Source: Fidelibacterota bacterium (lineage in GTDB: Bacteria; Fidelibacterota; Marinisomatia; SCGC-AAA003-L08; TS1B11). From it: a stretch of DNA of 64,000 nt. The position numbers and the translations under genes are program-made. Under the pieces are notes generated by a model that searched no databases, was not told where the DNA came from, and saw only the letters and a program-made list of their open reading frames with translations. The stretch spans positions 8,586 through 72,585 of the forward strand of contig JBHPIW010000011.1 of assembly GCA_042568495.1 (NCBI GenBank), read 5' to 3'. Of this stretch, positions 6,899-63,167 are shown in pieces; position 1 is the stretch's first letter; each line of letters begins with the position of its first letter.

Positions 6899-6900
6899 AA

Positions 6901-12301: not shown

Positions 12302-12526
12302 AGACTGAATTTATCCAACCACCGTGGCCGGGGCATGGACTTTTACCTTATTCCAAAGAAGTATTAGACGTGGGGCCGACACATTAGCTGCCCTGTTGAT
12401 AAATGACCCGAAAATCATACCTGTCATCGATTTACATGGGTAACTTTTTGATCGCCATGAATAGGTTCCAGATCGGTAAACAAGGCTAATATATATTGGA
12501 AGTTGGCAATTTGTAAAGAATTGGGC

Positions 12527-15422: not shown

Positions 15423-15443
15423 TGTATCTGGAGGAGATATAGT

Positions 15444-15974: not shown

Positions 15975-16018
15975 CCTCTCACTCCTAACCATCAGCCGCA
16001 ATACTGCGCTATTACTAT

Positions 16019-20004: not shown

Positions 20005-21399
20005 GTGTTGAGATCACTGTTATATTGGCTCTATCAGAAACGCTGGCTGATACTGGCTATCGCCATCGGGACTCTGCTGTATCATCTTCCCTATCCTGAG
20101 GGCGTGTCCAAGGATGGCTATCGCACCATCATCCTCACCATCGTTGTTATTATCCTGATTCTCACTGAAGCGGTTCCCCTGCCTGGTATCGCCCTCTTCA
20201 TCGCCGTGATGCAGGTGAGCTTTGCCATCGCCAAGCCCTCCGAAGTCGCTCAGTCCTATATGAGCGATGCTGTGTTCTTCATTATGGGATCGCTCATGTT
20301 GGCAGTAGCCATCGTTCGCCAGGGATTGGATGCCAGACTGACTCTGGCTGTTTTATCTCTTACTGGTACCCGCGTGAAAACGATCATGTGGGGATTCTTC
20401 ATTATCTCACTCCTCCTCACATCATTTATTGGGCAACATGCCGTTGTTTCGATGCTGTTGCCGGTAGTCCTGACTCTACTCCGAAACATTTCGGATGAAG
20501 AACAAGAAATTCGCGGACTTACGATGATGATGCTCTTCGCCATTGCATTCGGCAGCATCATTGGATCCATCGGCACACCCTCGGGAGGTGCGCGTAACGC
20601 CATTATGATTAATTACTTTTCAGATTTCGGCCTAGCGAAAATCAGCTACCTGCGGTGGATGGTGTTTGCCTACCCCGTTATGCTGGTACAGATCCCGCTG
20701 GCCGGTTGGGTGCTCTCCCGGACCTTCAAACCCGAGGTTACCCGTCTGGATGATGCCGTCTCCAAGCTGAAAACTAAAGTCGCGGCGGCGGGCCCCCTCA
20801 CCAGTCAGCAGGTCCTGGCTATTATCCTGTTCATCATGATTTTCCTGGCGTGGGTATTCCTGAGTGAACGATTTGGTCTGGGGATCATTGCACTGGCAGG
20901 CGTCTTTCTCTATCTCGCCAGCGGATTGGTGCAATGGCAGGAGATCAATCAGCGAACCAACTGGGGCGTCGTTCTGTTGTTCGCGGCGGCGATCTCCTTG
21001 GGTGTGCAGCTGAAAAACACCGGAGCCGCACTCTGGCTCGCCCAACAGCTCCTGCACCTATCCGGTGGATTCCTGGAGCGTTTCGCGATCGCGCAATACA
21101 GCCTTGTTATCACCCTCACTGCAGTGGTTGCCAACTTTATAAGTTCCAGCGCCACAGTGGCGGTTCTGGGGCCATTATTCATGAACTTCGGAGGTGATCC
21201 TGTTCTGTTGGGAATGGCAACCGCCGTGGCCTCAGCATTCGGCTATCTCACTGTTGTGGGGGCGCCAGCGGGGATGATCATTGCTGCCACGGGCCTGGTA
21301 AGGGCCAGGGATTTCATTCGGGCTGGTTGGCGTCTGACCCTGGTTTCCCTTTCCGTTTTAATGCTGGCACTTTTATTCTATTGGCCTCATATTCAGTAG
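20005..21399 (+). CDS. Ion-transporter (IT) superfamily permease (ArsB/NhaD/DASS-like anion transporter)
   Basis: Polytopic membrane protein. Repeated hairpin-like segments with Gly/Ser/Pro-rich reentrant motifs (GSIGTPSGGARNA). Paralogous in topology to the downstream DASS gene. Confidence 0.55.
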   Translation: MLRSLLYWLYQKRWLILAIAIGTLLYHLPYPEGVSKDGYRTIILTIVVIILILTEAVPLPGIALFIAVMQVSFAIAKPSEVAQSYMSDAVFFIMGSLMLAVAIVRQGLDARLTLAVLSLTGTRVKTIMWGFFIISLLLTSFIGQHAVVSMLLPVVLTLLRNISDEEQEIRGLTMMMLFAIAFGSIIGSIGTPSGGARNAIMINYFSDFGLAKISYLRWMVFAYPVMLVQIPLAGWVLSRTFKPEVTRLDDAVSKLKTKVAAAGPLTSQQVLAIILFIMIFLAWVFLSERFGLGIIALAGVFLYLASGLVQWQEINQRTNWGVVLLFAAAISLGVQLKNTGAALWLAQQLLHLSGGFLERFAIAQYSLVITLTAVVANFISSSATVAVLGPLFMNFGGDPVLLGMATAVASAFGYLTVVGAPAGMIIAATGLVRARDFIRAGWRLTLVSLSVLMLALLFYWPHIQ

Positions 21400-21434
21400 T
21401 GGGTTATGATTAATACAGGTAGAGTGAAGGATTA

Positions 21435-22310
21435 ATGAGATTTCTAATAGCGGTTAGAAGCACCACCTATTCCGAGCGCACTCTGCAGATCGGAAGTCAG
21501 ATCGCCAACGCGTTTTCAGCCGACCTTTCAGTCGTCTACGTAGGTGATCGTCCGCCCGAATTACTCTCTGGCGGTGTCCGACTTGCTCGCGATGCCCTGC
21601 TGAATTGGGAGATCAATCATCCCGGTGTGGAAGTCCTGCGCTGGGCCTATCGACGTCTTCAGGACTGGGAATTTATCGATCCCTCCCTGGAACAGTTTGA
21701 TCCGACAAATTTGGTTGAGGATGCCGATCGCATCCGGGCGATCCTGCCACACGTCCATGGAGAAAAGATAAGACTCATCTTCCGCGAGGGGGATCCGGTA
21801 GACCAACTCCGGAAAGAAACAGAGTATCGGGATTATGTGCTATCCATCGTGGGTGGGGGCAATCGCAAGGGACTCACCCGGCAGCTTATCCAGTTCGTGG
21901 ATACCAGTATGCTATTCGTGAAAAACTGGGATCCCGAATGGAACTATAAGGTTCTGTTGTGTGCAGATGATTCCCAGGCAACTAAACGGGCGGTGGTATT
22001 CGGGGCTCAGGTGGCTCAACATTACAAAACCCAGGTGGAACTGCTAACCGTCAGTAAGACGCAGCGGTTCGGTGAGGGCTATCGGGGTGCGGCTCGCTGG
22101 GCACAGCGCTATCTGGAACGGGTGAAAGTGCCCTATAACCAGCACTTTGAAACCGGTGACCCCAGCTCGGTGTTTGTCGAGTTCGCTGGCTCTGATCATA
22201 TAATCATCATGGGTAAATCACGGATGAATCCAATCAAGGCTTGGTTTAGAGGTACCAAACCGGGCAAAACGGTATTGAAGGCTCACAGTCCGGTAATCCT
22301 GGTCCGTTAA
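21435..22310 (+). CDS. Tandem universal stress protein (UspA-family, two Usp domains)
   Basis: Two alpha/beta Usp-like halves (MRFLIAVRST...LSVVYV and KVLLCADDSQATKRAV...HIIIMGKS...SPVILV). Confidence 0.55.
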   Translation: MRFLIAVRSTTYSERTLQIGSQIANAFSADLSVVYVGDRPPELLSGGVRLARDALLNWEINHPGVEVLRWAYRRLQDWEFIDPSLEQFDPTNLVEDADRIRAILPHVHGEKIRLIFREGDPVDQLRKETEYRDYVLSIVGGGNRKGLTRQLIQFVDTSMLFVKNWDPEWNYKVLLCADDSQATKRAVVFGAQVAQHYKTQVELLTVSKTQRFGEGYRGAARWAQRYLERVKVPYNQHFETGDPSSVFVEFAGSDHIIIMGKSRMNPIKAWFRGTKPGKTVLKAHSPVILVR

Positions 22311-22434
22311 ATCAATCCTCAGCCTTCGTCGATCATTAGCGTTCGTACTCTCATACCTTCATTGCAATCTGTCAACAGAATCCACGAATATCAACGGGGA
22401 CATAAATAAGCGATTTAAAAATGAAGGATAATCA

Positions 22435-23850
22435 GTGCTAGACACCAGACGCGAAGGCCTCCGGTTGTGGGGCAAACTGGAGTTCCGCTCCGGTCGTGCC
22501 CTAGTGAAGGTTATAGCCTGTGGAGTAGTCGCGGCCGGAATTACCCTCCTACCTGTTCATCCAGGTCTGAATGATGCCGCACGCTGGACATTCTTCATCT
22601 TGATACTGGGAGCCGGATTGTGGATCACGGAGGCGATTCCTTCCTTCTCAGTCGCCTTATTAATTATCGCCTTGGAGATCATGATCCTTGGTCGACCCGG
22701 TGGTGTATTCGCTCAAACGCCCTCGGATTGGGAGATGTTTGTCCGGCCCTGGTCCAGTCCCATCATGTGGCTTTTTCTTGGTGGTCTGGTACTGGGTGAA
22801 GGTGCCCAGGCAACCGGTCTGGACCGCTTGTTTTCCCGGTATGTCCTGAGGTGGTTCGGGACTACGCCGAATGCCATCCTGCTTGGATCGATGAGTATCA
22901 CTTTTCTTTTCTCCATGTTCATGTCCAATACCGCCACAACGGCCATGATGATGTCCGTGATGGCGCCTATCCTGGTAGCTATAAAGAAGGAAGATCGCTT
23001 CGCCAAGGCACTTCTGCTGGGCATCGCGATTGCCGCCAATGTAGGCGGTATGGGTACCATCATCGGAAGTCCTCCCAATGCCATCGCCGCCGGAATGCTG
23101 AACGATGTCTATCCCATCGATTTCGCCCGTTGGATGGTCGCCGGTTTGCCGCCGGCACTGGTGCTGTTCATCTTGGCCTGGTTCTATTTGCGCTGGGCCT
23201 TCCCCTCCACTGCTACACATATTGATATATCGGGATTGGAGATTGGAACACGGACGGGTGCCCAGCTACCCATGTGGAAGAGATTAATGATCATGCCGGT
23301 GTTTGCATTGACGATTTTACTCTGGATGACCGGTCAGTTCCACGGCATCCCGATCCCGGTAATCTCTTTCCTTCCGATCACGATCTTTGCCGTCGCCGGT
23401 ATTCTGACGGTATACGAGATCCGTCACTTGCATTGGGATGTTCTGTTGCTGTTGGCCGGCGGACTTTCCTTGGGTGTCGCCGTCCGACAGACCGGCCTGG
23501 CTGAGTGGATCGTAACTCGTTTGCCGGTGGAACATCTTCATCCCGTGGTTCTGGCGTTTTTCATGGGCTACCTGACCATGCTGCTATCAAATTTCATGAG
23601 TCACACTGCCGCCTCCAATATTCTGGTACCCATTGGCATGGCCGTAGCTGCCGGTTTTGAACCACGTGTGGTGATTCCCGTAGCCTTGGGGGCATCCACC
23701 GCTATGCTGCTGCCGATTTCAACACCGCCCAATGCGATTGTATTTGCCAAGGGTAGCCTGAGAACGGCCGATATGGTTAAAGGCGGCCTGCTCATGGGGC
23801 TGCTGGGCCCGGCCGTAGCAGTGCTGTGGTGCCTCTGGTTGTTCCGCTAA
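22435..23850 (+). CDS. DASS/SLC13-family divalent anion:Na+ symporter-like permease
   Basis: SNTATTAMMMSVMAPI and GSPPNAIAAG (SPPN reentrant-loop motif) repeated in the two halves (second half: STPPNAIVFAKG). Confidence 0.7.
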   Translation: MLDTRREGLRLWGKLEFRSGRALVKVIACGVVAAGITLLPVHPGLNDAARWTFFILILGAGLWITEAIPSFSVALLIIALEIMILGRPGGVFAQTPSDWEMFVRPWSSPIMWLFLGGLVLGEGAQATGLDRLFSRYVLRWFGTTPNAILLGSMSITFLFSMFMSNTATTAMMMSVMAPILVAIKKEDRFAKALLLGIAIAANVGGMGTIIGSPPNAIAAGMLNDVYPIDFARWMVAGLPPALVLFILAWFYLRWAFPSTATHIDISGLEIGTRTGAQLPMWKRLMIMPVFALTILLWMTGQFHGIPIPVISFLPITIFAVAGILTVYEIRHLHWDVLLLLAGGLSLGVAVRQTGLAEWIVTRLPVEHLHPVVLAFFMGYLTMLLSNFMSHTAASNILVPIGMAVAAGFEPRVVIPVALGASTAMLLPISTPPNAIVFAKGSLRTADMVKGGLLMGLLGPAVAVLWCLWLFR

Positions 23851-42674: not shown

Positions 42675-43952
42675 CTATTTCAGCAGTACCAGCTTGAGGG
42701 AGTTAGTGTACGCCGGTGTCGTCAGCCGGGCGAGGTAGATGCCGGAGGGGACATTTCTACCCCTTGCGTCCTTGCCATCCCACTGAACCTGGTGGTAGCC
42801 CGGTTCCAGCCCCCCCTCAACCAGCCGGGCCACTTCCCGGCCGAGGAGGTCGTATAGGATGAGTGCGACCTCGCTGGCGTGGGGCTGATCGTAGCGGATG
42901 GTGGTGCTGGGATTGAAGGGATTGGGATAGGCGGCAATCAAGCCAAATTCCCCCGGTGCTGCCCCATTGGAGCCCCGTTGATCGATGGAAAGCGGTTCGA
43001 GATCATCTATTATTGAGGCATCAATCCAGTGCGGATTGCCATCAGAATTGAAGAACAGATATGCACCATCGGCGGAAACTGATGGTCCTCCCTGGTACGT
43101 GCTAGTATTAACGGCACTACCCATGTTTATAGCTGGGCTCCATTCACCATCATTATCGCGAAAACTGATATAAAGATCATTGGCTCCGTAGCCTCCCGAT
43201 CTCGATGATGACCAGATCAAATAGCTTTCATCAGGGGCCACAAACGGTGCCAGGTCCATCCCGTCCGAATTAATGTTGTTGCTCATACGTACTGGTGCGG
43301 CGTATCCTTCTCCAGACTTCTCGCACATGTAGATATCAAGATCTGAAGCCACGGAAGACATTCTCAGATACAGGGTCTCATCGGCAGCGATGCTAATCTC
43401 CCATCCTCCATATAGACCAGTAACCAGACTGATTCTCACAGCAACTGGCTCCAACCAAGTGCCGTCAATACGAGAAGTTTTCCAAATATGGTAGTTGGAT
43501 TCACCTGGTTTATCCGATAAAAAATACATGATATTACCGTTATCCAGAAAGGTGGGACTGGCCTCAGCGTAGCCTCCATCAAAATCGGTACGCTGGGGAT
43601 CCGTCCAGATACCATCAATTATTTCCTGATAGCGAATCGTAATCCCCTCGTTATCGGTACCAACATAAATATCGGAATACATTTCCGTTCCATCGGAAGG
43701 GAAAACCAAGCCGTGGTGCCACCACCACTCACTGGTGGAGCGCAGCGATTCAGGTACAAATATTTGGGCGACGGTGCCCGGTGGCTCTTGCCCAAGGTAC
43801 GGACCGCTCCATAAGATGTCGGCATCCTGTCCGTTCAGCTCGCCCGGTTGACTGCATAATGGAACCATAAAAAACATAACTATCGCCAAGCAGCAACGAT
43901 ACACTACGAATATTTTCTCAACATGCAATCCAATCGTCTCCACAGGGAACAT
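42675..43952 (-). CDS. T9SS-secreted protein: WD40-like (PD40/TolB-type) beta-propeller repeats plus a type-A Por C-terminal sorting domain
   Basis: PD40-like repeats (SPTFLDNGNIMYFLSDKPGESNYHIW, APFVAPDESYLIWSSSRSGGYGANDLYIS, GPSVSADGAYLFFNSD). The C-terminus AYPNPFNPSTTIRYDQPHASEVALILYDLLGREVARLV...SGIYLARLTTPAYTNSLKLVLLK is a T9SS CTD. Start at MFPVET... Confidence 0.75.
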   Translation of the reverse strand: MFPVETIGLHVEKIFVVYRCCLAIVMFFMVPLCSQPGELNGQDADILWSGPYLGQEPPGTVAQIFVPESLRSTSEWWWHHGLVFPSDGTEMYSDIYVGTDNEGITIRYQEIIDGIWTDPQRTDFDGGYAEASPTFLDNGNIMYFLSDKPGESNYHIWKTSRIDGTWLEPVAVRISLVTGLYGGWEISIAADETLYLRMSSVASDLDIYMCEKSGEGYAAPVRMSNNINSDGMDLAPFVAPDESYLIWSSSRSGGYGANDLYISFRDNDGEWSPAINMGSAVNTSTYQGGPSVSADGAYLFFNSDGNPHWIDASIIDDLEPLSIDQRGSNGAAPGEFGLIAAYPNPFNPSTTIRYDQPHASEVALILYDLLGREVARLVEGGLEPGYHQVQWDGKDARGRNVPSGIYLARLTTPAYTNSLKLVLLK

Positions 43953-44525
43953 CCTGGCCTGGCCGCTATTCTTATTTCTGGAGTATCGGTTTGATGTATT
44001 ATTCATGGAGTGATTACTCTTTACTGCCTTGATTGAGCTGAATTCCGGGGCTATGGTGCGATAGATATACATAACTATTTCCCTTCAAATAATACTAATT
44101 ATCCCCGTCATCTGTGCATGCCTATAAAATGCAAAATGCGTACCGTTTCAAGTAGAAACTCACCATGATATCATGGAGCCTAATCAAATGATATTGATGC
44201 GAGAAGGAGTTTGACGATTGAGTTAAATCATGATGCCCGCAGCGAGTCATAATAACAGCTGGGGCCCTATCAGAATCCTGAAACTAGTATTAGTAATCTG
44301 ATGATTTAAATGGACACACCCAAGCGCTTCATAGTCAACATTGGTTAGCATTAGGCAAATTCTGGCCCTTCAACCGCCGGTTGAACAGTAGTCACTCCAA
44401 CACCGTCCATTTATTGCACACTTACACTTTTTCTCATCGGTGAGCGATGTACTTCTAATGCACCGATCTCAACCGGATATTGAGGAGATCACATAAGTTA
44501 TAGGGTGAGTTTCAGGCCCGTTGGT

Positions 44526-51716: not shown

Positions 51717-52262
51717 ATGGGGTTCGAACCGACGGATGCAGATGTTGCCGAACAGATCCGCGTTGGCGATGAATCGGCTTTTCGTGCGCTCTTTAATGCC
51801 TACGCAGAACCACTGCTTGATTTTGCCTTTGGCTTCGTCGGGGATGAACAGATCTGCGAAGATATCGTGCAGGAGGTATTTGTCAATATTTGGCAACACC
51901 GGGCCCGGTTGAATCCCGAATTGTCCCTGAAAGCATATCTGTACAAATCAGTACGAAACCAGTCGCTTAAGGTTCTAAGGCATGCAAAAGTCGAACGTGC
52001 TGCAGAGGGATACCTTCAATCGCTTTATTACACGACAGATAACCCTGAAGAGGAATTAAATCATGCAGAACAGACGGTGTTGTTGGACCGGACCATCCGA
52101 CAACTGCCGGAAAGCTGCCGTACAATTTTTCTGATGAGCAAGTTCGACGGCCTGTCCTATAGGGAAATCGCCCATACTCTGGATATATCTATCAATACGG
52201 TAAAAACCCAAATGGGACGTGCCTTCACAGCCCTTCGCCGGAATCTCTTTCCAAAAAGATAA
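51717..52262 (+). CDS. ECF (group 4) sigma-70 factor, FecI-like
   Basis: Region 2 (ICEDIVQEVFVNIWQHRARLNPELSLKAYLYKSVRNQSL) and region 4 (LPESCRTIFLMSKFDGLSYREIAHTLDISINTVKTQMGRA). Confidence 0.75.
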   Translation: MGFEPTDADVAEQIRVGDESAFRALFNAYAEPLLDFAFGFVGDEQICEDIVQEVFVNIWQHRARLNPELSLKAYLYKSVRNQSLKVLRHAKVERAAEGYLQSLYYTTDNPEEELNHAEQTVLLDRTIRQLPESCRTIFLMSKFDGLSYREIAHTLDISINTVKTQMGRAFTALRRNLFPKR

Positions 52263-52314
52263 TCGTCCCACTACGGGATCAAGTCAGATGTCTCGCACTG
52301 AATTGGGAGTGTGA

Positions 52315-55002
52315 TCATCGATTCCATTCCCAGGTAATACCAAGCGACGGCAGCCGGGGAAACCAGTACTCATTTTCCGTGTAGATGACTGCCTGACCAG
52401 ATTGATCCATATAATCGTCATATTTAATGGTTCGTAGATTTTTAAAGTCTAACAGGTTAATCACCTGGAGGTATAGGGTTATCTGGCTACTGCGCAGTTG
52501 GATATTGCGGTTGATCCGCAGATCAACCCGTGAATAGGGATCATAGTTATCCCGGTTGTAAACGCTGAAGTCCTGACCCAGTCTGATTCCACCCTCAGGC
52601 GGCGTCTCCAGGAATTCCTCCAGATCAATATAGGGTAATCCCGAATGGGACTGATAGGCCAGATTCACCTGCCAGTCAGGATTGGGCCGGAAATTCAGAT
52701 CAAGATAGAACGTATGCCGCTGATCGTAGATATTCGGGTGAATAGTGAAACCTTGGGTATACATCGAATCTCGAAACACCAGGTTATTAATATTATCGTC
52801 AAAATAGACCCGCGCATAGCTGGCCCACCAGGAAACCTTGCCACCGCGGTCGTATTTCCAATAGAATTCAATCCCTTTGAAGCTAGCTCCATTCAGGTTC
52901 AATTGGTATCGATCACCTTCCAGCTCGGGGAATTGTATATGGTTGGACCCATTCCGGTATTTAGGCTGGAGGTGAGTCATTTTCTTATAATAGGTTTCCA
53001 CGCGAAAACTCATGCCGTTATTCTGAATTTGTTCGAACCCGGCCACCCAGTGCTCGGCCATTTCGGGGGGGAGGAAATTGTCTTCGCCGTCTTCTACGCG
53101 GATCTCGTGAATCCCGTCATTCTGGTAAAAATAACCCCAACCGGCACGAAAGAAGGTTTGTTCGGCCAGTGTCCAGACCAGATTCAATCTGGGACTTAGT
53201 TTGTTCGTATTGCTATAGCCGATGGCGTCAAATCGTAAGCCGATTTCCAGGACCAGCGGATCAAGGAATTTCAAGCGGTTCGACATGTGGGCGCTATATG
53301 AATTCCCTTTAGGATTCAGTATCGAATGGGCTGTGCGCTCATAGGTCACAACACTGTCACTGTTGATCCGGTCTTCATCAACTGTATGGAGATCGTAGCG
53401 ATAATCCGATTCATGGTGTTGGATGCTCATGCCGGCCTTGATATGCCAGCGATCTGAAAATTGCACATTCCAGTTTTGCCGGAGGCCGAATACGGTTGCA
53501 TCTCTACGGTCCACCATAGAAAAGGTCTCGGTCTGGTCGTAATTTGTTTCTTCAGATTCGCGACGGCGGCTCAGATTTCCAACCGACACTACCGCTTGGG
53601 AAAAGAGTCTGGGGAGAGGATTCGATCTATAGTTTATCCATCCGTAGGTATTGCCGAATTTCGTCTCACCCACTTTTTCTCTGTAGTTCAAAAAATCATT
53701 GTATTCGACATATTCCGTTTGGTCGCCGGCGTGGAGAAAATGGACGGAGAGTTGGTGCTTTCGGTCCAGTTGATAGTCCAATTTACCGTGGATATCATAG
53801 TATACCGGCCGGGGAACATCTTCCTCGTCTGCGCCCACTATATCCAGGAGAATGTCCAGGAAACCTCTTCTCATTGATAGAAACCAGGCTCCTTGAGTGC
53901 CACCATCGAATGTCCCCTCTGACCTGTAAAAGGTATTCGTCATACTCAATCCCAGGGATGTTTGGCTGCTGCCCTGGGATGGCCGTATCGTTTTCATGGT
54001 TAACACACCACTCATACGGTTGCCATATTCCGCCGGAAATCCTCCCGTGAGCAGATCGACGCCTTCTATGACACCCACATCGATAAAGCTGAAAGCACCG
54101 CCAGCGACGTCCTTCAGATGAAACGGCTCGTAAATCTCTACCCCGTCCAGCAAGACCAGGATCTCCTCATTCTCGCCACCACGAACGGTAAATTTGGCCG
54201 AAAAATCGTTGGCACCAACGCCCGGTAAACGGGTCAGTGCACGATAAACATCATCGCCGAACGTGATATTCTGCATATCCTCGTGGGTAAGAGTCTGCTG
54301 CATGGTTGGTCCCTTGCCCATGATGGAGAATAGACCCGGCGTAACCGTGATTTCCTGTAACAGGATCTGCCGCGGCTTCAATTCTACGGTTAAATCGGGA
54401 GTTGTATTCGAATTCGAGAGGTAGGTAACCACCTTCCGGGTTTCGTAGCCGATATACTCAAGTTGCAGGATCTGGAATCCCTCGGGGGCTCTCAATACAG
54501 TAAAATGCCCCGTCGAATCACTTACGCACCCGATATGCGTGCCCAGAATAGAGATATTGGTACCGGTCAGCGGCGCTTTTGTTTCCTGATCCAGTACCTG
54601 ACCGGAGATGGACGCGTTATGATCACGTCTGGCCGGAACCACAGCCAGCTCCTCATCGGGTGTCACTATCAGTGTTGTTCGGGTTCGCTGCAGCAGCACG
54701 AACAGAATCTCGAACACCGGAATGTTTTCCATGTCGAGGGTTACGATCTGATCAACGGGGATTCGATTCCGGTTGTAGTTCAACTTGAAATTGCCCCTGT
54801 CGGCGATGATTCCCAAGGCCTCCCCATAGGTGACCCGGTTCAGGTCTATCGATATGGAATCCGTGAGAGATGCCGGAATAGTATGCCAGTCGTACTCATC
54901 AATCAGGGCAATGCCAAAATCTCCTTCTGAAATTGCTGGCGAGATCATGATTACCCATAACAGCAGGGAGCAGGTGATCTTGCTTATATGAATATTGGAC
55001 AT
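52315..55002 (-). CDS. TonB-dependent receptor/transducer with N-terminal signalling (STN-like) extension and a carboxypeptidase-regulatory-like domain (SusC/FecA-like)
   Basis: 895 aa. N-terminal extension before the CarbopepD_reg-like segment (ISGQVLDQETKAPLTGTNISILG...), a plug, and a C-terminal barrel ending ...GITWEWNR. Immediately downstream of fecR. Confidence 0.8.
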   Translation of the reverse strand: MSNIHISKITCSLLLWVIMISPAISEGDFGIALIDEYDWHTIPASLTDSISIDLNRVTYGEALGIIADRGNFKLNYNRNRIPVDQIVTLDMENIPVFEILFVLLQRTRTTLIVTPDEELAVVPARRDHNASISGQVLDQETKAPLTGTNISILGTHIGCVSDSTGHFTVLRAPEGFQILQLEYIGYETRKVVTYLSNSNTTPDLTVELKPRQILLQEITVTPGLFSIMGKGPTMQQTLTHEDMQNITFGDDVYRALTRLPGVGANDFSAKFTVRGGENEEILVLLDGVEIYEPFHLKDVAGGAFSFIDVGVIEGVDLLTGGFPAEYGNRMSGVLTMKTIRPSQGSSQTSLGLSMTNTFYRSEGTFDGGTQGAWFLSMRRGFLDILLDIVGADEEDVPRPVYYDIHGKLDYQLDRKHQLSVHFLHAGDQTEYVEYNDFLNYREKVGETKFGNTYGWINYRSNPLPRLFSQAVVSVGNLSRRRESEETNYDQTETFSMVDRRDATVFGLRQNWNVQFSDRWHIKAGMSIQHHESDYRYDLHTVDEDRINSDSVVTYERTAHSILNPKGNSYSAHMSNRLKFLDPLVLEIGLRFDAIGYSNTNKLSPRLNLVWTLAEQTFFRAGWGYFYQNDGIHEIRVEDGEDNFLPPEMAEHWVAGFEQIQNNGMSFRVETYYKKMTHLQPKYRNGSNHIQFPELEGDRYQLNLNGASFKGIEFYWKYDRGGKVSWWASYARVYFDDNINNLVFRDSMYTQGFTIHPNIYDQRHTFYLDLNFRPNPDWQVNLAYQSHSGLPYIDLEEFLETPPEGGIRLGQDFSVYNRDNYDPYSRVDLRINRNIQLRSSQITLYLQVINLLDFKNLRTIKYDDYMDQSGQAVIYTENEYWFPRLPSLGITWEWNR

Positions 55003-55050
55003 CCTAAATGTGTTCCTATTATTGGCACAGATTTTTTCGCCGGGTTCATT

Positions 55051-56070
55051 TTATTCGGAAGCGGACAGGTGTATTATGCTGTCGGAGCGTTCATAATTCA
55101 GGTCGGTCAGTAATGTGATCATCTCCAGGATCGAATCAATGGACTTCTTTTGTGTATGCAGGGTCAGTCGTTCTGAAGCCAGGACGGAACTTGCGAGTGT
55201 GAATTTCACGTCATACCAGCGTTCCAGATGGAACAGGATCTCCTCCAGGGATACGTTGTCAAATCCCAGATCATGATCAAGCCAGGCCAGATACTTGGCC
55301 GGGTCCACGTCGTGTGGGGATTGTATCATCCCATTTTCCAGAACGGCCGCCGCCTGGCCGCCGGTGATGATCATTGCATCGATCCCTCGACCGCGAGCCG
55401 GACGTAAGGATACTCGGCCTTCCGCAACCGCGACTCTGACGGCGCGGTCCAGTTCCCAGCTGCGTACCGTAAATTTGGTACCGAGAACCTGGACGACCGC
55501 GTGATCAGTGCGGATGATGAAGGGCTTCGACGCATCCGGCGCTACCTCGAAATAGCCCTCTCCGTACAGCGAAACCTCCCTCGTTTTTGCCTTAAATCGG
55601 ATTGGGTAGGAGAAGGAACTCCCCGCATCCAGGGTTACAACGGTACCATCGCTCAAGGTAAGTTTTTCCTGGGCACCATGCTGCACCTTGAGCGTGGTAG
55701 GGGTCCCATGCAGCAGCGAATCAGATGTTACTAGAAATGAAAAAAGTCCCAATGAGATCGCAAGCAGTCCGCTGGCCATGACCAGCACCAACCTGGATTG
55801 TCTGGCGGTAGAAGACAGAGGGAATTGGCTCTCCCCCGGAGTTGGCAGCTGCTGAACTCCGGCTGCGTCGCGGATCTTCAGCCACAGCTTGTTCTTGTCC
55901 CAGAGATTCGGCCGTCTTATTCCAGGGGTCCAGGCCTTCGCAATATCGTCCATGGTCTCCCGATATTCAGGATTCGATTGCAGCCAGAGTTCCACTTCTC
56001 TGAGCTCTTCCTCACTGCATTCACCGGACAAATAGCTGGCGAGCAATTGATCATCTGGAAGGCTTTTCAT
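55051..56070 (-). CDS. FecR-family anti-sigma factor / transmembrane sensor
   Basis: Cytoplasmic N-domain (LLASYLSGECSEEELREVELWL), a single TM, and a periplasmic FecR domain (...VVQVLGTKFTVRS...). Confidence 0.75.
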   Translation of the reverse strand: MKSLPDDQLLASYLSGECSEEELREVELWLQSNPEYRETMDDIAKAWTPGIRRPNLWDKNKLWLKIRDAAGVQQLPTPGESQFPLSSTARQSRLVLVMASGLLAISLGLFSFLVTSDSLLHGTPTTLKVQHGAQEKLTLSDGTVVTLDAGSSFSYPIRFKAKTREVSLYGEGYFEVAPDASKPFIIRTDHAVVQVLGTKFTVRSWELDRAVRVAVAEGRVSLRPARGRGIDAMIITGGQAAAVLENGMIQSPHDVDPAKYLAWLDHDLGFDNVSLEEILFHLERWYDVKFTLASSVLASERLTLHTQKKSIDSILEMITLLTDLNYERSDSIIHLSASE

Positions 56071-56344: not shown

Positions 56345-59300
56345 ATGAACACCGAAAACTTCGCGAAATTCTCAAAAGAATCGGCTCAAGGCTACCAGGA
56401 TATTCTGGAAGGCATCGAAGAGGGCTATTTCGAGGTTGACCTGGCCGGCAATCTTACCTTTTTCAACGATTCCATGTGCCGAATCGCCGACCTCCCCAGG
56501 GAAAAACTTATGGGAATGAACAACCGGGATTATACAACCCCGGAGACTTCCCAGAAGATGTACCAGGCTTTTAACGATATCTACCGTACCGGCCTTTCGA
56601 CGAAGATCATGGACTATGAGATTATCAGGACCGACGGAACGATCAGGAATCTCGAGCTCTCGGCATCACTGATCCGGAATCATGATGGAGAACCGGTCGG
56701 GTATCGAGGGATTGTACGCGATACAACCGAGCGCGTGCAGTCTATGAAAGCCTTACAAGAGAGTGAGGAGAAGTTCAGGACGCTGTCCGAACAGTCTCCC
56801 AATATGATTTTCATCAATCAAGGTGGCAGGATTATCTACGCCAATAGCAAATGTGAAGAGATTATGGGCTATACCAAGGAGGATTTCTACTCGCCCGATT
56901 TCGATTTTCTTACCCTTATAGCTCCTGAATCCATCCAGACGGTAATGGAGGTTTATGCCAAACATCAACGGGGAGAAGACGTATCACCCTATGAGTGCAC
57001 ACTTGTCACCTTGGATGGGAGACGGATCTATGGTCATCATACGACCAAGCTAATCAACTTGGATGGTGAACCGGCCATCATGGGTATTATTACCGATCTG
57101 TCGGAGCGGAAGCAGGCAGAGGAAGAGCTGCAGAAATTTAAACTGGGAATTGAAAAGACCAGCGAAGCCGTATTCCTGACCGATCCTGATGGGACGATTC
57201 GCTACGTGAATCCCGCCTTTGAGAATATCTACGGTTTTACACGGGACGAAGCCATCGGCGAGACTCCGCGGATTGTAAAATCAGGTGAACATTCTCCGAA
57301 GTTATACAAACAATTCTGGGAGACTATCCTCGCGAAGAAAGTGGTTACAGGGGAGCTGATCAATAAAACCAAAAGCGGTGAGTTGATACATATCGAAGGA
57401 TCGGCGAATCCAATACTAAACAGGCAGGATGAGATTATTGGATTCCTGGCGATCCAGCGTGACATCACCGAACGAAAACGGCGAGCGCACGAGATCCAGA
57501 GACGTACCGAAGATGTCAGCTTGATAAACGATGTCAACAGCGCCCTCAATAGCGGGAAACCGTTGGGGGAGGTTATTGAACTCTTATCGGATCGGATCAA
57601 GGGAATGTACTCATCACTTGGTGTCAGGGGTGCCGCAGTGTTTCTTTTTGATGATACCCGCGAACACCTTGTTATGCAAAATCTCCCCTTGAGCACGAAA
57701 GTGATCCGCCAGCTCGACAAGATTATTGGCCGACCACTCCCGCAGTTCAAGATCAGCAATATCGCCGGTTCCCTGCACAACGAGGTGGTGGCGTCGGGCA
57801 AGACAAGGATGCTGGACGATGCGAGAACAATTAACCAATGGATGCGGGAATTCGTTACAGAGTCCTGGATCAGCAATCCGACGCTGCGCAATCAATTGAA
57901 GAAGTTTGCTCCCCAGATTCGGAAGCTATTGGGAATAGAGGCGACCCTCATTATCCCGCTCAGGATCGAAGATGAAACCGTGGGCTTACTAGAGATCTCC
58001 AGTGCACCCGCATTCGACGCTTATGACATCAAACACCTGGAATTGATTTCCAATCAGCTCACGGTCGCAATCCGACGTAAACAGATGGAAGACGCGCTGC
58101 GGGAAAGTGAGGAACGCTACCGCAGTATTGTCAACGCCTCGCCCATGGGGATTCACCTTTACCACCTGGATGAGCAGAACCAGTTGATATTTGAAGGAGC
58201 CAATCAGGCAGCCGACCAGATTCTCAATGTGGACCACTCCCAGTTTATGGGGAAAACCCTTGAAGAAGCCTTCCCCGGCAACGTCAAGACGAATCTTCCT
58301 GATGGCTATAGGCGAATCGCCAGGGAGGGCGGTTGTTGGGGCCGGGAAAATATTGTGTACCAGGATGATCAGATCTCTGGAGCGTTTGAGGTGCACGCTT
58401 TCCAGGTCGGTCCGAACAAGATAGCGATCTTATTCACCGATGTCACTGAGCGTAAGCAGAAAGAAGAAGCGCTGCGCCTGACACAATTCTCCGTGGACCA
58501 TTCCAGCGACGCCGCCTTCTGGATGGGGCAGGATGCACGATTCGTATATGTTAATGAGATCGCTTGTCGCTCCCTGGGCTATTCCCGGGACGAACTCCTG
58601 GGGATGACCGTGCATGATATTGATCCGGACTTTCCAGCGGAGGTGTGGCCTGAACACTGGGAGGATCTGAGGCGTGAAGGATCGCTTACGATGATATCTC
58701 AGCATCGCAAGAAAAATGGTCAGATCATCCCGGTTGAGATCACCGCCAACTTTGTCGAATATGGGGGAAATGAGTATAACTGTGCCTTTGCGCGGGACAT
58801 TACCGAACGTCTGGAGGCTGAAGAAGCCCTGCGCGAATCCGAACGGATGCTGCGGGAATTCCATGAAAATGCCATTGAAGGCATCTTCCGTACAACTACG
58901 GATGGCAGAGTGCTTTACACCAACGAAGCCATGGCCAGGATTTTTGGATATGACAGCATTGAGGAATTCAAGCAGATAAACGTGTTCGACCTGTATCAGG
59001 ATAAACAGGATCGAGCCCGGATACTTAAGGATCTGGAGTCTCTGGATTATCTCCAGAACCTCGAACTCCATCTGCGGCGCAGGGATGGCGCCGATGTCTG
59101 GGTACAAGAAAATGCCACCGCTGTCAGAGATGAAGAAGGGAATATACGCTGGATCGAGGGATTCCTCTCGGATATTACCTCCCGCAGGGAGGCGGAAGAA
59201 TCTCTCCGGGATAGGGAAGAGGAGCTACGCCAGTCCCAGAAAATGGAAGCCGTGGGTCACCTGGCTGGCGGGATCGCCCATGATTTCAACAATGTCCTTA

Positions 59301-60352
59301 CCCAGATCTCCGCGGCTACGGAGTTGCTGGAGGCCAATGCGGAGCAGACATCGGGCGAGCGGTATCGGAATATTATCCTGGGTGCCGTGGAGCGCGGCAA
59401 GTCCGTGACCGATCGGATTCTAAAATTCTCGAGAAGATCCAAGCCTCAGTACGAGAGCTTTTCCATCGCTCTCCTGCTCAATGATATTGTGCATGTCCTG
59501 AGACATACCCTTCCGAAATCGATCCGCGTAAACCTGGAGACGAATAATCATGATTTCTCCGTCTGGGGAGATAAGGGGCAGCTGCATCAGGTATTCATGA
59601 ATCTATGTTTGAATGCCGCCGATGCCATGCCGAAAGACGGTGATTTAACCCTGAGCATCCGGCAGGCAAACGAGGATGAAGCTCGTCAACACGACGCTCA
59701 TCCGGAGCAGAAATTTGCGGCGGTTGGAGTCTCAGACACCGGCGCAGGGATGGATAACGAGACGATCGAGAAGATATTTAATCCCTTCTTTACCACCAAG
59801 AAAGCCGGCAAGGGGACCGGACTGGGATTGCCGATTGTCTATAGTATCATCAATGATCATAATGGATGGGTAGATGTGGCCAGCCAGCTCAAGCAGGGCA
59901 CCACCTTCACTGTTGGATTACCTCTCTCTAAGGAGCGTGCAGACCAGCTGACATCTGACTTTGAAGGAAAAAACCTCGTGGGAAATGGTGAACATATTCT
60001 GGTGGTGGATGATGAGCCCATGCTGCCGATGCTGCTAAGGGAGATTTTGGAGTCGGCAAATTATGTGGTCAGCATCGCCGAAAGTGGGGAATCCGCCTTG
60101 AAGCACATCCGGGAATCATCCGAACGCGTCGATCTCATCATAACGGATCTGGATATGCGAAACATGGGCGGGCGCGAACTGGTGGAAAGTATTCGTGGCG
60201 ATTCGTTGAAAACCCCCGTCATTGTGACCTCCGGCTATTTTGATCCGGACGAAGTGAAGGAATTAAAGAACCTGGATGTCGAGAGATTTATGAATAAGCC
60301 CTTCAAGGTGGAGGAAGTGATCAAGTTGGTGTACGAATCTTTAAGTGCCTGA
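56345..60352 (+). CDS. Multi-PAS/GAF hybrid sensor histidine kinase (at least 5 PAS/PAC modules, a GAF-like segment, HisKA, HATPase_c and a C-terminal receiver domain), cytoplasmic
   Basis: Repeated PAS cores (e.g. ...DGTIRYVNPAFENIYGFTRDEAIGE..., ...DARFVYVNEIACRSLGYSRDELLGMTVHDI..., ...DGRVLYTNEAMARIFGYDSIEEF...). H-box HLAGGIAHDFNNVLTQI, G-boxes DTGAGMD and GKGTGLGLPIVYSI, REC ILVVDDEPML...DLIITDLDM. No TM segment. Confidence 0.85.
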   Translation: MNTENFAKFSKESAQGYQDILEGIEEGYFEVDLAGNLTFFNDSMCRIADLPREKLMGMNNRDYTTPETSQKMYQAFNDIYRTGLSTKIMDYEIIRTDGTIRNLELSASLIRNHDGEPVGYRGIVRDTTERVQSMKALQESEEKFRTLSEQSPNMIFINQGGRIIYANSKCEEIMGYTKEDFYSPDFDFLTLIAPESIQTVMEVYAKHQRGEDVSPYECTLVTLDGRRIYGHHTTKLINLDGEPAIMGIITDLSERKQAEEELQKFKLGIEKTSEAVFLTDPDGTIRYVNPAFENIYGFTRDEAIGETPRIVKSGEHSPKLYKQFWETILAKKVVTGELINKTKSGELIHIEGSANPILNRQDEIIGFLAIQRDITERKRRAHEIQRRTEDVSLINDVNSALNSGKPLGEVIELLSDRIKGMYSSLGVRGAAVFLFDDTREHLVMQNLPLSTKVIRQLDKIIGRPLPQFKISNIAGSLHNEVVASGKTRMLDDARTINQWMREFVTESWISNPTLRNQLKKFAPQIRKLLGIEATLIIPLRIEDETVGLLEISSAPAFDAYDIKHLELISNQLTVAIRRKQMEDALRESEERYRSIVNASPMGIHLYHLDEQNQLIFEGANQAADQILNVDHSQFMGKTLEEAFPGNVKTNLPDGYRRIAREGGCWGRENIVYQDDQISGAFEVHAFQVGPNKIAILFTDVTERKQKEEALRLTQFSVDHSSDAAFWMGQDARFVYVNEIACRSLGYSRDELLGMTVHDIDPDFPAEVWPEHWEDLRREGSLTMISQHRKKNGQIIPVEITANFVEYGGNEYNCAFARDITERLEAEEALRESERMLREFHENAIEGIFRTTTDGRVLYTNEAMARIFGYDSIEEFKQINVFDLYQDKQDRARILKDLESLDYLQNLELHLRRRDGADVWVQENATAVRDEEGNIRWIEGFLSDITSRREAEESLRDREEELRQSQKMEAVGHLAGGIAHDFNNVLTQISAATELLEANAEQTSGERYRNIILGAVERGKSVTDRILKFSRRSKPQYESFSIALLLNDIVHVLRHTLPKSIRVNLETNNHDFSVWGDKGQLHQVFMNLCLNAADAMPKDGDLTLSIRQANEDEARQHDAHPEQKFAAVGVSDTGAGMDNETIEKIFNPFFTTKKAGKGTGLGLPIVYSIINDHNGWVDVASQLKQGTTFTVGLPLSKERADQLTSDFEGKNLVGNGEHILVVDDEPMLPMLLREILESANYVVSIAESGESALKHIRESSERVDLIITDLDMRNMGGRELVESIRGDSLKTPVIVTSGYFDPDEVKELKNLDVERFMNKPFKVEEVIKLVYESLSA

Positions 60353-60586
60353 CACAGCTGATCCCGATCCACTCCGCTTGTTTCCGGCTCTAGTGCTGAC
60401 CCCACCATTCCTTTCCGGCTAGGCCAGGTTGTGTGCATTTTAACCGTTTGGTGCATTTTTTCTATGCCAAGCCATGTAGAACCGCCTTCACGCCAGCACT
60501 TCTGATTATCACGAATTTGAATGGATATTTGTCCCCCTTCTGGATAAGTTACTCCAGTCTCTGATAATTTGGGGAGGAGTCAACTG

Positions 60587-61924
60587 ATGACGTCACCCTT
60601 GCCCGTTTTGCTGCTCGTTCCGTGGATTCTGCTGGCTCAGGAAAAGTCAGGTACGGAAGCTCACGGAATATATTCCTACGATCACTTCGAGAAACCTTCC
60701 GCGTGCCGCCCTTGTCATGTGGATATATTCTACCAATGGGAACAGGCCATGATGTCCCAGGCATACACCCATCACTGGGATGAGGTCGAATATTTCCGGC
60801 TGGCAGTACCTCACGCCGAAATCGAACCCAAGGTCGCTGAGGTGAAGGACGGCTGCAACGGCTGCCACGCACCGGCCGCCTTTATGGCCGGCGATACACC
60901 GCCGCCGCCGCCATCCGAAAACTCCCGGGCCAACGAGAGTGTCTCCTGTGATATCTGCCATACCATCAAGACCGTGGAAGCCGCAACTCCATTCAATTTC
61001 AACTATGTATCGACTCCCGGTAAAGTAAAGTACGGTGCGAAAGGTCGGGATCTATCACCGTACCACACTGTGGTGCAAAACGACTTCACCGGCACTCCCG
61101 AACTCTGCGGATCCTGCCACAATGAGCAAAATCCCTCCGGTGTCTGGGTAAAGTCTACCTACCTGGAGTGGGCAGAGGGACCCTATCCCGACCAGGGAGT
61201 CACCTGCATGACCTGCCACATGCCTAAAGCCCATGGCGTGAGTGCCATCATGGCCCAAGAGAAATCCATGGTAGCCCAACACCTGTTCCACGGCGCGCAC
61301 GACGATGGCAAGCTACGGAGTGTCGTGGAAATGCGGATGAATCCGGACGTCCGGGAAGTAGAGCCGGGAGAAACCGTGACCTTCAGCGTGCAGCTGTTCA
61401 ATGCCAAGACCGGTCACAAATTCCCCTCGGGGTCCGCGGAAGAGCGGGTGCTCTGGGTGCATGTGGAAGCCGTGGATGAGGATGGAAAGGTCTACCATCT
61501 GCCCGTGGATGCCAAGGGATTCCAGGGGGAACAGTACACTATCGCTTCTGAGGTTTTGGCCTATCGCGACATGGGTATCCCGCTCGGGATCCCGGACTTT
61601 CCCGGAATCCGCCGGGAAATGATCCCCGCCGGTGATCGCATCTTCAGGCTCCCATACCTTAATCCGGATGGAGAGATGACCATCATGCAGTGGTACACCG
61701 CCAGCCTGGGCACCGACTACCGCATCGGACCTCGTGAGACCAAGCTGGAAACCTACACCTGGCAGGTCCCGGATGATATCGCCGAGGGAAACGTGACTAT
61801 TCGGGCGGAGATGTACTACCGGAAGCTGCCCGTTTCAGTGGCTGAATTCCTTGGGGTGCCCGAAGAGGAATCGCGGGCAGTACTGGTCAACGACGCCTAC
61901 ACCTGGATCGAGATATTCTATTAA
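60587..61924 (+). CDS. Secreted pentaheme c-type cytochrome with a non-heme C-terminal domain of roughly 220 aa
   Basis: Signal peptide MTSPLPVLLLVPWILLAQE. Five CxxCH motifs (CRPCH, CNGCH, CDICH, CGSCH, CMTCH) in the first ~225 residues. GGAGGA lies 8 nt upstream of the ATG. Confidence 0.8.
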   Translation: MTSPLPVLLLVPWILLAQEKSGTEAHGIYSYDHFEKPSACRPCHVDIFYQWEQAMMSQAYTHHWDEVEYFRLAVPHAEIEPKVAEVKDGCNGCHAPAAFMAGDTPPPPPSENSRANESVSCDICHTIKTVEAATPFNFNYVSTPGKVKYGAKGRDLSPYHTVVQNDFTGTPELCGSCHNEQNPSGVWVKSTYLEWAEGPYPDQGVTCMTCHMPKAHGVSAIMAQEKSMVAQHLFHGAHDDGKLRSVVEMRMNPDVREVEPGETVTFSVQLFNAKTGHKFPSGSAEERVLWVHVEAVDEDGKVYHLPVDAKGFQGEQYTIASEVLAYRDMGIPLGIPDFPGIRREMIPAGDRIFRLPYLNPDGEMTIMQWYTASLGTDYRIGPRETKLETYTWQVPDDIAEGNVTIRAEMYYRKLPVSVAEFLGVPEEESRAVLVNDAYTWIEIFY

Positions 61925-61955
61925 GCATTTCACCACTAACCTGCGAGGGGGCCTC

Positions 61956-63167
61956 ATGAAAAATCATCCCAAACTCCCGCTCATCATTCTATTGGTTGGT
62001 GTCTTTGTCCTTCAGGTTGAGACCGCCTATGCCATTCCGGGATTTGCCCGTAAGTACGGTATGAGCTGCACCACCTGTCACACCATGTTTCCCAAGTTGA
62101 AGGAGTTCGGCGAGGAGTTCGCCGGCAACGCTTTTGTGATGGAGGGCCAGGAACCTCGCCGGGCGAACACGGACACGGGCGATGAACTGCTCCTGCTGCA
62201 GCGTGATTTCCCTGTTGCCGTCCGTTTCGATGTCTTTGCCCAGGCCCAAACAAACGACGACCATCCGGCTGCAGACTTCCAAACACCCTGGGGGGTGAAG
62301 CTGCTCTCAGGAGGCAATGTCACCGAAAAAATCGCCTACTATTTTTACTTCTACATGAGTGAGCATGGGGAAGTGGTTGGCGTGGAAGACGCCTACTTGT
62401 ACTTTTCCAATATTTTCGGGTCAGGCATTGGGGCTGCAGTAGGGCAGTTCCAGGTTTGCGATCCCCTGTTCAAGCGCGAGCTGCGCCTGACCTACGAGGA
62501 TTACCAGCTCTACAAGGTGAGAGTGGGGTATGTGCCCACCAACCTAGCGTACGACCGTGGGATCATGCTGGACTGGGGCGCACCCTGGGGCACCGACATC
62601 TTCCTGGAAGTGGTCAACGGTAACGGCATTGGTGAGTCTGAAGATGGCTATTACGACGGGGACAACTACAAGAATGTCTTTCTCCGCGCATCCCAGGGCT
62701 TCGGACCACTGCGCCTGGGAGCCTTTGGTTACCATGCTGCCAGCTCACTTAACGGGCAAGATAATATCATGCTGGCGGGAGGCCCGGATGCTACCCTGAG
62801 CGCGGGGCCACTGGAAATCAACTTCCAGTACCTCTGGCGGCAGGATGATAATCCTTATTATCAAGGAGACATCCCCGGAGATGCAACCATTACCAGTGGC
62901 AGCCTTGCGGAGGTTATCTTCTCCCCTCGCGGGGACCGCAGCCGCTGGAACCTGGTGGGAATGTATAATCAGGTCACCTCCGATGTTGTTGACAAGATAC
63001 CACTGGAGTATATTGATACATCGTACTTGTACGATATTGAGTATGAGACAGTTGCCTTGGCGGCCAATTACCTGGTGGCCCGCAACCTGCGGCTATTGGC
63101 GGAGGTGAAGTACGATCTGAAGGCTGAGCAAACCCGGTTTGTGATGGGATTTGTGGCGGCGTTCTAG
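61956..63167 (+). CDS. Cyc2-like fused monoheme cytochrome-porin: signal peptide, a single CxxCH near the mature N-terminus, and a roughly 360-aa predicted outer-membrane beta-barrel ending in Phe
   Basis: MKNHPKLPLIILLVGVFVLQVETAYA|IPGFARKYGMSCTTCHTMF... There are no further CxxCH motifs. The remainder is rich in alternating aromatic/hydrophobic beta-strand-like stretches and Gly/Asp turns, and the C-terminus ...RFVMGFVAAF is a typical OMP terminal-Phe signature. The ORF-track start at 61851 overlaps the upstream gene and is rejected. The functional assignment is by architecture only. Confidence 0.6.
   Translation: MKNHPKLPLIILLVGVFVLQVETAYAIPGFARKYGMSCTTCHTMFPKLKEFGEEFAGNAFVMEGQEPRRANTDTGDELLLLQRDFPVAVRFDVFAQAQTNDDHPAADFQTPWGVKLLSGGNVTEKIAYYFYFYMSEHGEVVGVEDAYLYFSNIFGSGIGAAVGQFQVCDPLFKRELRLTYEDYQLYKVRVGYVPTNLAYDRGIMLDWGAPWGTDIFLEVVNGNGIGESEDGYYDGDNYKNVFLRASQGFGPLRLGAFGYHAASSLNGQDNIMLAGGPDATLSAGPLEINFQYLWRQDDNPYYQGDIPGDATITSGSLAEVIFSPRGDRSRWNLVGMYNQVTSDVVDKIPLEYIDTSYLYDIEYETVALAANYLVARNLRLLAEVKYDLKAEQTRFVMGFVAAF

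Follow-up and report, generated by a model that had tools for sequence, protein, structure and literature searches.

Proteins of the Cyc2 family, in which a one-heme cytochrome is fused to a porin, include Cyc2 of A. ferrooxidans, Cyt572 of Leptospirillum, and Cyc2PV-1 of Mariprofundus and are divided into clusters 1-3 (McAllister 2020; Keffer 2021). All family members tested biochemically oxidize Fe(II) (PMC8406198, PMC7029218), and Cyc2 serves as the main marker gene for calling iron oxidation in metagenomes. Most Cyc2 matches outside the classical iron oxidizers fall in poorly understood clusters whose function is contested. Here we analyzed a stretch of 64,000 nucleotides from a Fidelibacterota bacterium (assembly GCA_042568495.1, contig JBHPIW010000011.1, positions 8,586 to 72,585; hereafter the window) in which two open reading frames (ORFs) follow one another in tandem on the + strand: ORF-A, encoding an exported soluble pentaheme c-type cytochrome, and ORF-B, encoding a fused monoheme cytochrome-porin. 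An initial annotation of the window had likened ORF-B to Cyc2 and proposed that the pair forms an undescribed module. The comparisons below place ORF-B in the Cyc2 family with good support and indicate that its pairing with a pentaheme protein is the norm for a subfamily that spans many phyla of sediment bacteria.

According to Keffer et al. 2021, a Cyc2 protein has a signal peptide, one CxxCH, the stretch AxPxFAR[Q/K][T/Y] upstream of it, which is called unique to Cyc2, and PxL four residues downstream; it is at least 365 residues long and contains a 16-strand barrel, modeled on OprO/OprP (PMC8406198). For ORF-A, a described system of similar architecture is ExtKL, or MccSep (GSU2937-2936), of Geobacter sulfurreducens, a protein of about 49 kDa with a five-heme cap and an immunoglobulin (Ig)-like stem. 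MccSep is periplasmic by experiment, and the entry route of its substrate is stated to be unknown; it reduces polysulfide via a heme-ligating Cys239 and selenocysteine (Sec) 325, the distal Cys ligand of heme 2 and the Sec/Cys of the Ig-like domain being the residues that define its catalysis (bioRxiv 10.1101/2025.11.18.688581).

ORF-B carries the Cyc2 signature and an OprP-like barrel

ORF-B (61956..63167, +) starts with an ATG, is preceded by a Shine-Dalgarno-like GAGGGGG (61945..61951, +; read from the sequence), and encodes 403 residues. Its N-terminus, MKNHPKLPLIILLVGVFVLQVETAYA followed by IPGF, looks by inspection, not by a predictor, like a cleavable signal peptide of residues 1 to 26 (cut between ...ETAYA and IP; 61956..62033, +), and a hydrophobic N-terminus that closes with a small-x-small motif recurs among 46 aligned homologs. 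The sole CxxCH of the protein, CTTCH at residues 38 to 42 or mature residues 12 to 16 (62067-62081, +), lies within a cytochrome domain that was delimited by alignment and by the published motif (residues 27 to 70; 62034..62165, +). This region, AIPGFARKY-GMS-CTTCH-TMF-PKL, fits AxPxFAR[Q/K][T/Y]-x3-CxxCH-x3-PxL exactly. Across the 46 homologs, P28, F30, A31, R32, Y34, S37, C38, C41, H42, P46, and L48 are invariant, and the consensus N-terminus reads A-I-P-A-F-A-R-K-Y-x-x-S-C-x-x-C-H-x-x-x-P-x-L. Indeed, the CxxCH is kept in 46/46 aligned homologs and occurs exactly once in 80/80 homologs retrieved with their genome loci, and hence its presence in ORF-B is not due to chance. The strict upstream motif is found in 66/80 of these genome homologs; in the others, the [Q/K] position is taken by R, M, or N, with an additional His at [T/Y] in one of them.

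The remainder of ORF-B was modeled by AlphaFold2 as a 16-strand beta-barrel (residues 87 to 402; 62214..63161, +) with a terminal Phe (...GFVAAF), in agreement with the initial annotation, which had read the last ~360 residues as barrel strands with an aromatic C-terminus typical of outer-membrane proteins. The mean pLDDT of the model is 72, most of the barrel lies between 70 and 93, and GQFQVxDPLFKRELRL (residues 163 to 178) represents a conserved inter-strand segment. The cytochrome domain was modeled at a pLDDT of 30 to 48, a low confidence that is expected because heme is absent from the model. The closest structural match of ORF-B is OprP, which is also the published template for Cyc2. 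Scans against Pfam and NCBIfam gave no match for ORF-B, and a PDB sequence search with its profile gave none at E values up to 1. The signal peptide, the single CxxCH, the upstream motif, the PxL, the length, and a barrel of about 16 strands resembling OprO/OprP are thus all found in ORF-B.

As stand-ins for characterized Cyc2 proteins, we used Cyc2-type genes of Proteobacteria that tblastn had located on plasmid records of Methylocystis, Caballeronia, and Ralstonia. These adjoin genes for HiPIP and c-type cytochromes, including a two-domain one, i.e., the classical Cyc2 context. ORF-B matched the Methylocystis gene at an E value of 1e-4 in tblastn, and its motif spacing is the same as in the proteins of all three genera. 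In hhalign, the cytochrome domain of ORF-B proved homologous to that of the proxies, with 98% probability (E 1.2e-13) over 57 columns, which cover this domain only. Profile-profile comparison did not align their barrels; this is expected because Cyc2 clusters share only 17 to 23% identity. Taken with the monoheme-plus-porin architecture, which the initial annotation had recognized, these comparisons provide good support for membership of ORF-B in the Cyc2 family. The barrel of the ORF-B subfamily is nevertheless far better conserved than that of Cyc2 overall: in the 46-homolog alignment, ORF-B shares 46 to 57% identity with homologs across phyla and 77 to 88% with its two closest relatives.

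NCBI lists the ORF-B protein of the window as hypothetical, under a metagenome-assembled genome (MAG) of Candidatus Neomarinimicrobiota, and every one of more than 2500 homologs is annotated "hypothetical" as well. They are carried by Marinimicrobia, Calditrichota, KSB1, Krumholzibacteria, Latescibacteria, Zixibacteria, Ignavibacteria/Melioribacteraceae, Bacteroidota, and Gemmatimonadota; unlike the classical Cyc2 hosts, carriers of the ORF-B type are mostly heterotrophic members of Fibrobacteres-Chlorobi-Bacteroidetes (FCB)-type and allied phyla. A profile search with the ORF-B alignment, which covered 1.84 billion representatives, returned 197, 1190, and 3488 clusters (at 50% identity) at E values of <=1e-30, <=1e-10, and <=1e-3, respectively. 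Among 17 of the weaker matches that we retrieved, nearly all keep the FAR-like, CxxCH-bearing N-terminus, the exceptions being two garbled low-complexity sequences.

Cyc2-type genes in FCB-type phyla are therefore numerous, and they are already known. Cyc2 homologs were reported from Southwest Indian Ridge metagenomes in Calditrichota, KSB1, Krumholzibacteriota, Gemmatimonadota, Eisenbacteria, and Bacteroidota, with about 75% of the new homologs placed in cluster III (PMC9769843), and He et al. 2019 reported them in Ignavibacteriaceae and Bacteroidetes MAGs (PMC6344600). The MAG names in Fig. S9 of the former study, for which alone we used that figure, include Dive96_bin3.89, bin2.107, bin3.154, and bin3.88 as carriers of cyc2-like genes, and these same MAGs carry our loci L003, L016, L031, and L022, respectively. 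No assignment of Cyc2 to Marinimicrobia was found in the literature, which was covered in part. In view of these reports, a Cyc2-like gene in an FCB-type genome is not the unusual finding that the initial annotation had taken it for.

A pentaheme partner conserved across phyla

ORF-A (60587..61924, +) encodes 445 residues. The ATG at 60587 was favored over a TTG at 60569 as its start because the SD-like GGAGGAG (60573..60579, +; read from the sequence) precedes it by 7 nucleotides. The N-terminus is a hydrophobic signal sequence that lacks a lipobox Cys, and we infer from the signal peptide only that ORF-A resides in the periplasm. A motif scan located five heme-binding motifs between 60704 and 61219 (+), at residues 40, 90, 121, 174, and 207: CRPCH (60704-60718), CNGCH (60854-60868), CDICH (60947-60961), CGSCH (61106-61120), and CMTCH (61205-61219). 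The protein contains exactly 10 Cys residues, each inside a heme motif. Its AlphaFold2 model (pLDDT 82) shows a helical heme part followed by a beta-sandwich from about residue 245, and we accordingly distinguish a heme cap (residues ~30 to 245) from an Ig-like beta-sandwich (~246 to 445). The five CxxCH motifs and the non-heme C-terminal domain noticed at the outset are therefore both borne out. Pfam gave weak multiheme matches, including one to the MtrC/MtrF pentaheme domain at 26.9 bits (cutoff 30).

All five heme sites are kept in 49 aligned homologs from several phyla, which share 59 to 83% identity. At heme site 1 (60704..60718), 30/65 homologs have CxxxCH, e.g., CGSSCH, instead of CxxCH, and because of this, plain CxxCH counts score about half of the ORF-A homologs as tetraheme. 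Extra Cys residues outside the heme motifs are absent in 44/65 homologs, and none is conserved. The homologs share long invariant blocks (MMSQAYTHHWDE, NSRANESV, QHLFHGAHD, and GHKFPTGS), and six His outside the motifs as well as M56 are invariant across the alignment. These residues could supply axial ligands for all five hemes. Given so many invariant His, most of the hemes would be bis-His ligated and thus typically of low potential, and M56, which aligns with a His of the T. tepidum protein described below, might point to His/Met ligation of heme 1.

Within the PDB, the ORF-A profile had a single sequence match, penta-heme cytochrome c552 of Thermochromatium tepidum (5ze8_A; hmmsearch E 6.5e-14), in three collinear stretches spanning profile positions 41 to 440. 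The same structure was the top Foldseek match of the ORF-A model (5ZE8; E 4.7e-19, TM 0.58/0.66, 20% identity), while the remaining Foldseek matches cover the Ig-like domain only. Like ORF-A, c552 consists of a five-heme N-terminal and a C-terminal Ig-like domain, and an H-x-x-P-T-G motif in the latter is common to both proteins; they differ in that identity is only about 20% and in that M56, invariant in the ORF-A family, aligns with a His of c552. By sequence and model, ORF-A is thus a distant member of the c552 family, at the superfamily level. Cytochrome c552 is described as a low-potential protein, and its physiological role is, to our knowledge, not known.

NCBIfam NF040886 (ExtKL) matched residues 119 to 303 of ORF-A at 44.9 bits, compared to a cutoff of 250. 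Similar to MccSep, ORF-A has five CxxCH in a helical cap and a C-terminal Ig-like domain. However, it has neither the heme-ligating Cys nor a Sec/Cys in the Ig-like domain, its gene contains no in-frame UGA, and its neighbor is a heme-bearing 16-strand porin rather than the ExtH/I/J set. Because both catalytic residues are absent, ORF-A is a relative of MccSep in fold and not a member of the enzyme family, and we rejected its assignment as an MccSep-type polysulfide reductase.

The stop codon of ORF-A and the start codon of ORF-B are separated by 31 nucleotides, which implies one transcript for both genes. No terminator-like site was found between them in a scan whose promoter and terminator counts did not exceed those of shuffled sequence. 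We monitored the linkage of the two genes in both directions. In the 80 genome loci retrieved with the ORF-B profile, an ORF-A homolog was located upstream on the same strand in 65, immediately adjacent in 64 and at a distance of 3.1 kb in 1. Five of the 15 loci without it are cut at a contig end, and 9 of the other 10 belong to Gemmatimonadota or Longimicrobiales. Conversely, the ORF-A profile was used to retrieve 80 metagenome loci, and a Cyc2-like gene directly followed the ORF-A homolog in 74/74 of them with room for one; the other 6 end less than 400 nucleotides past ORF-A. No other gene family was consistently linked among the 80 genome loci. Judging from gene order, pairing with a pentaheme protein is the norm for the ORF-B subfamily and spans phyla. 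What had looked like an oddity, a pentaheme in place of a mono- or diheme Cyc1, is therefore the rule for this subfamily. In the proteobacterial loci, the partner gene encodes a mono- or diheme class-I cytochrome or a HiPIP.

Five loci without the pentaheme gene, four of them labeled Gemmatimonadota, carry a gene for a class-I monoheme cytochrome c of about 170 residues (Cytochrome_CBB3/Cytochrom_C) 3' of the barrel gene (e.g., L052 9202..9711, +). The slot for a periplasmic partner thus looks exchangeable between lineages, and a role of ORF-A as periplasmic redox partner fits with this replacement by a monoheme cytochrome c. The closest ORF-A homolog (84% identity) comes from a closed Fidelibacterota genome (record CP070656.1, 3.06 Mb; L166 11338..11600). 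Behind it come a run of N and an unrelated 178-residue protein, and the lack of a visible Cyc2-like gene at this locus may stem from a gap in the assembly, from masking, or from true loss of the gene. In the 80 genome loci (L003-L082), the Cyc2-like family counts 98 members, with offsets of up to about 4 kb upstream, and some genomes therefore hold a second Cyc2-like copy within 8 kb.

We found no description of an ORF-A/ORF-B-type pairing in the searchable literature, including for Cyc2 with a pentaheme and for Cyc2 with ExtHIJKL. Hence, of the undescribed module that had been proposed, the pairing of a Cyc2-type porin with a c552/MccSep-fold pentaheme does appear to be undescribed so far, while the Cyc2 identity of ORF-B is not new. 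That a large FCB-type Cyc2 subfamily comes as a fixed two-gene unit provides it with a concrete partner protein, and the potentials of the six hemes offer a handle on the direction of electron flow. Via ORF-A, it also ties the T. tepidum c552 family, an orphan in function despite its solved structure, to a predicted outer-membrane partner.

Direction of electron flow and competing explanations

We tentatively favor, with somewhat less than even confidence, the view that ORF-A and ORF-B form a two-gene operon for a two-protein conduit that exchanges electrons with a dissolved redox species and carries them inward. ORF-B would be a 16-strand porin of the outer membrane, with its N-terminal one-heme domain of 45 residues placed at or within the periplasmic opening of the barrel. 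Because one heme cannot span the membrane, the dissolved species, which is most likely Fe2+ or a soluble complex of iron, would have to diffuse into the pore to swap one electron with the ORF-B heme. ORF-A, as a soluble periplasmic pentaheme and dedicated partner, would dock to this heme domain and pass on or buffer electrons between the outer membrane and respiratory complexes of the inner membrane whose genes lie elsewhere. In a heterotroph, such inward flow, by Fe(II) oxidation or electron uptake, could provide an auxiliary electron source or detoxify iron. Oxidation of Fe(II) by ORF-B is suggested by its family membership, and the inward direction seems most likely since the three characterized Cyc2 proteins oxidize Fe(II). 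The Gemmatimonadota variant, with its oxidase-donor-type cytochrome, points the same way.

Several observations weigh against this proposal. The window contains no oxidase, ccm, or quinol-oxidizing genes within its 64 kb, and its metabolism is of an anaerobe type (electron-transfer flavoprotein [ETF], 2-oxoacid:ferredoxin oxidoreductase, and a putatively Sec-containing SelD). A Marinimicrobia homolog of ORF-B (L001) has no cytochrome neighbor. The relatives of ORF-A sit on the reductive side, MccSep being a reductase, and the very high conservation of ORF-A, with about 60% identity across phyla, fits an enzyme better than a simple carrier. Finally, Cyc2-like genes occur in Ignavibacteriaceae, which are counted among Fe(III)-reducing taxa (PMC6344600).

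The last of these points, as well as the anaerobic look of the window, would suit the same conduit run outward, from the quinol pool via ORF-A and the ORF-B heme to soluble acceptors outside the cell or entering the pore, for instance humic quinones or chelated Fe(III), in an anaerobic respiration. ORF-A falls in the fold family of c552 and of MccSep, a reductase fed by the respiratory chain, and its invariant His, as mentioned above, hint at mostly bis-His hemes of typically low potential. In addition, cluster-3 Cyc2 is treated by FeGenie as possibly reductive, with occurrences in the Fe(III) reducers Geobacter and Rhodoferax. Nevertheless, reductive working has been shown for no Cyc2-family protein, the potential of PV-1 Cyc2, about +208 mV (PMC8406198), is ill-suited to reducing most forms of Fe(III), and the Gemmatimonadota barrel pairs with a class-I monoheme c of the oxidase-donating kind, so that we consider outward flow unlikely, though a serious contender. 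We regard as improbable that the pair would instead be an enzyme with its substrate channel, in which ORF-A would act on an oxyanion of S, Se, or N and ORF-B would mainly be an OprP-like solute porin with an accessory heme. The model for this would be ExtI-ExtKL of Geobacter, where the MccSep gene lies in an ext cluster together with extI, a gene for an outer-membrane protein. What keeps the enzyme reading alive is the extreme conservation of ORF-A (59 to 83% across phyla, with long invariant blocks), and it draws further support from the cap-plus-Ig-stem fold that ORF-A has in common with the polysulfide reductase and from a barrel whose best match is the anion porin OprP and which is itself conserved at 46 to 57% across phyla. 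It is weakened because both MccSep catalytic residues are missing from ORF-A and because the heme motif of ORF-B, not needed by a mere channel, is invariant; moreover, the invariant His and Met are numerous enough to fill all axial positions, with no open site evident, and the ExtKL score is far under its cutoff.

The proximity of a porin gene and a multiheme gene is also reminiscent of the porin-cytochrome clusters MtrCAB, MtoAB, and PioAB, for which electron transfer across the outer membrane is likewise presumed, and the subthreshold MtrC/MtrF pentaheme match of ORF-A (26.9 bits) is in line with this. By analogy with MtrAB/PioAB, the ORF-A pentaheme would be threaded through the ORF-B barrel to the cell surface, in contact with solid minerals or electrodes. 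However, the barrel has 16 strands and not 26, and it bears a heme of its own. ORF-A has five hemes and an Ig-like domain instead of being a decaheme MtrA-like protein, and this globular protein appears too wide for a 16-strand lumen, judging from the pore size of the OprP class. Since a barrel of 16 strands has no room for a five-heme domain and a single heme cannot span the membrane, we rejected Mtr-type threading on strand number and find it scarcely credible, and we would expect dissolved substrates for ORF-A/ORF-B rather than solids. Similarly, ORF-B might be considered a plain porin whose heme is incidental or non-redox, serving for instance heme or iron uptake or redox sensing, and with no electron-transfer meaning in the pairing, since ORF-B matches no curated family and a set of genes for an extracytoplasmic function (ECF) sigma factor, a FecR-type protein, and a TonB-dependent receptor lies nearby. 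We think this very unlikely: more than 80 homologs keep the heme motif and the Cyc2 signature around it without change, the linkage to a multiheme cytochrome is obligate, and the FecR/TonB-dependent receptor set is not conserved beside the pair. Taken across these alternatives, it is possible, if doubtful, that the pair represents a distinct outer-membrane redox module of FCB-type and allied phyla with a function other than classical Fe(II) oxidation, i.e., reductive extracellular electron transfer to soluble acceptors or catalysis on a small inorganic substrate that arrives through the pore. If this were true, many metagenomic calls of iron oxidizers that were based on Cyc2 would be misassigned for these phyla, and the pairing is in itself a reason for caution before such genomes are labeled iron oxidizers.

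Other genes of the window

The gene upstream of the pair encodes a hybrid sensor histidine kinase of 1335 residues (56345..60352, +), in which a domain scan identified six PAS domains, GAF, HisKA, HATPase, and REC. The initial annotation had drawn attention to this kinase, and its position and size were found as described. The GAF-kinase family is, however, present in only 17/80 related loci, with variable offset and strand, and we therefore rejected the kinase as a part of the module, as it is not conserved as a neighbor; a role as a local regulator is possible. Further 5' of the kinase, the region 51717..56070 contains the ECF sigma factor gene (+), the gene for the TonB-dependent receptor with CarboxypepD_reg and Plug domains (-), and that for the FecR-type anti-sigma factor (-), a trans-envelope signaling set that is not found conserved beside the cytochrome pair in other genomes.

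A PD40/FlgD-Ig protein (42675..44072, -) ends in a type IX secretion system (T9SS) type A sorting domain (TIGR04183, 28.7 bits, cutoff 23), which supports the earlier description of the organism as T9SS bearing. Such a tail was found on neither ORF-A, for which the Pfam/NCBIfam scan matched none, nor ORF-B.

The gene for SelD (11252..12331, -; TIGR00476, 319 bits) has an in-frame TGA in the conserved stretch ...HGSG*ACK.... Because of this, the organism is taken to decode UGA as Sec, and SelD of the window is itself probably a selenoprotein. At 3771..7680 (-), genes for EtfB and EtfA are followed by one for a TfrB/LdhH/HdrD-like protein of 683 residues that combines a 4Fe-4S dicluster with two CCG domains; together they look like an ETF-linked membrane or Fe-S oxidoreductase module of the kind that is typical of anaerobes. 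The regions 12503..17437 (+) and 20005..23850 (+) together hold two transporters of the DASS family (Na+/dicarboxylate or sulfate), which flank a universal stress protein, and nearby genes for a class II fumarase and for the two subunits of a 2-oxoacid:ferredoxin oxidoreductase. Their gene content suggests a dicarboxylate-based anaerobic metabolism.

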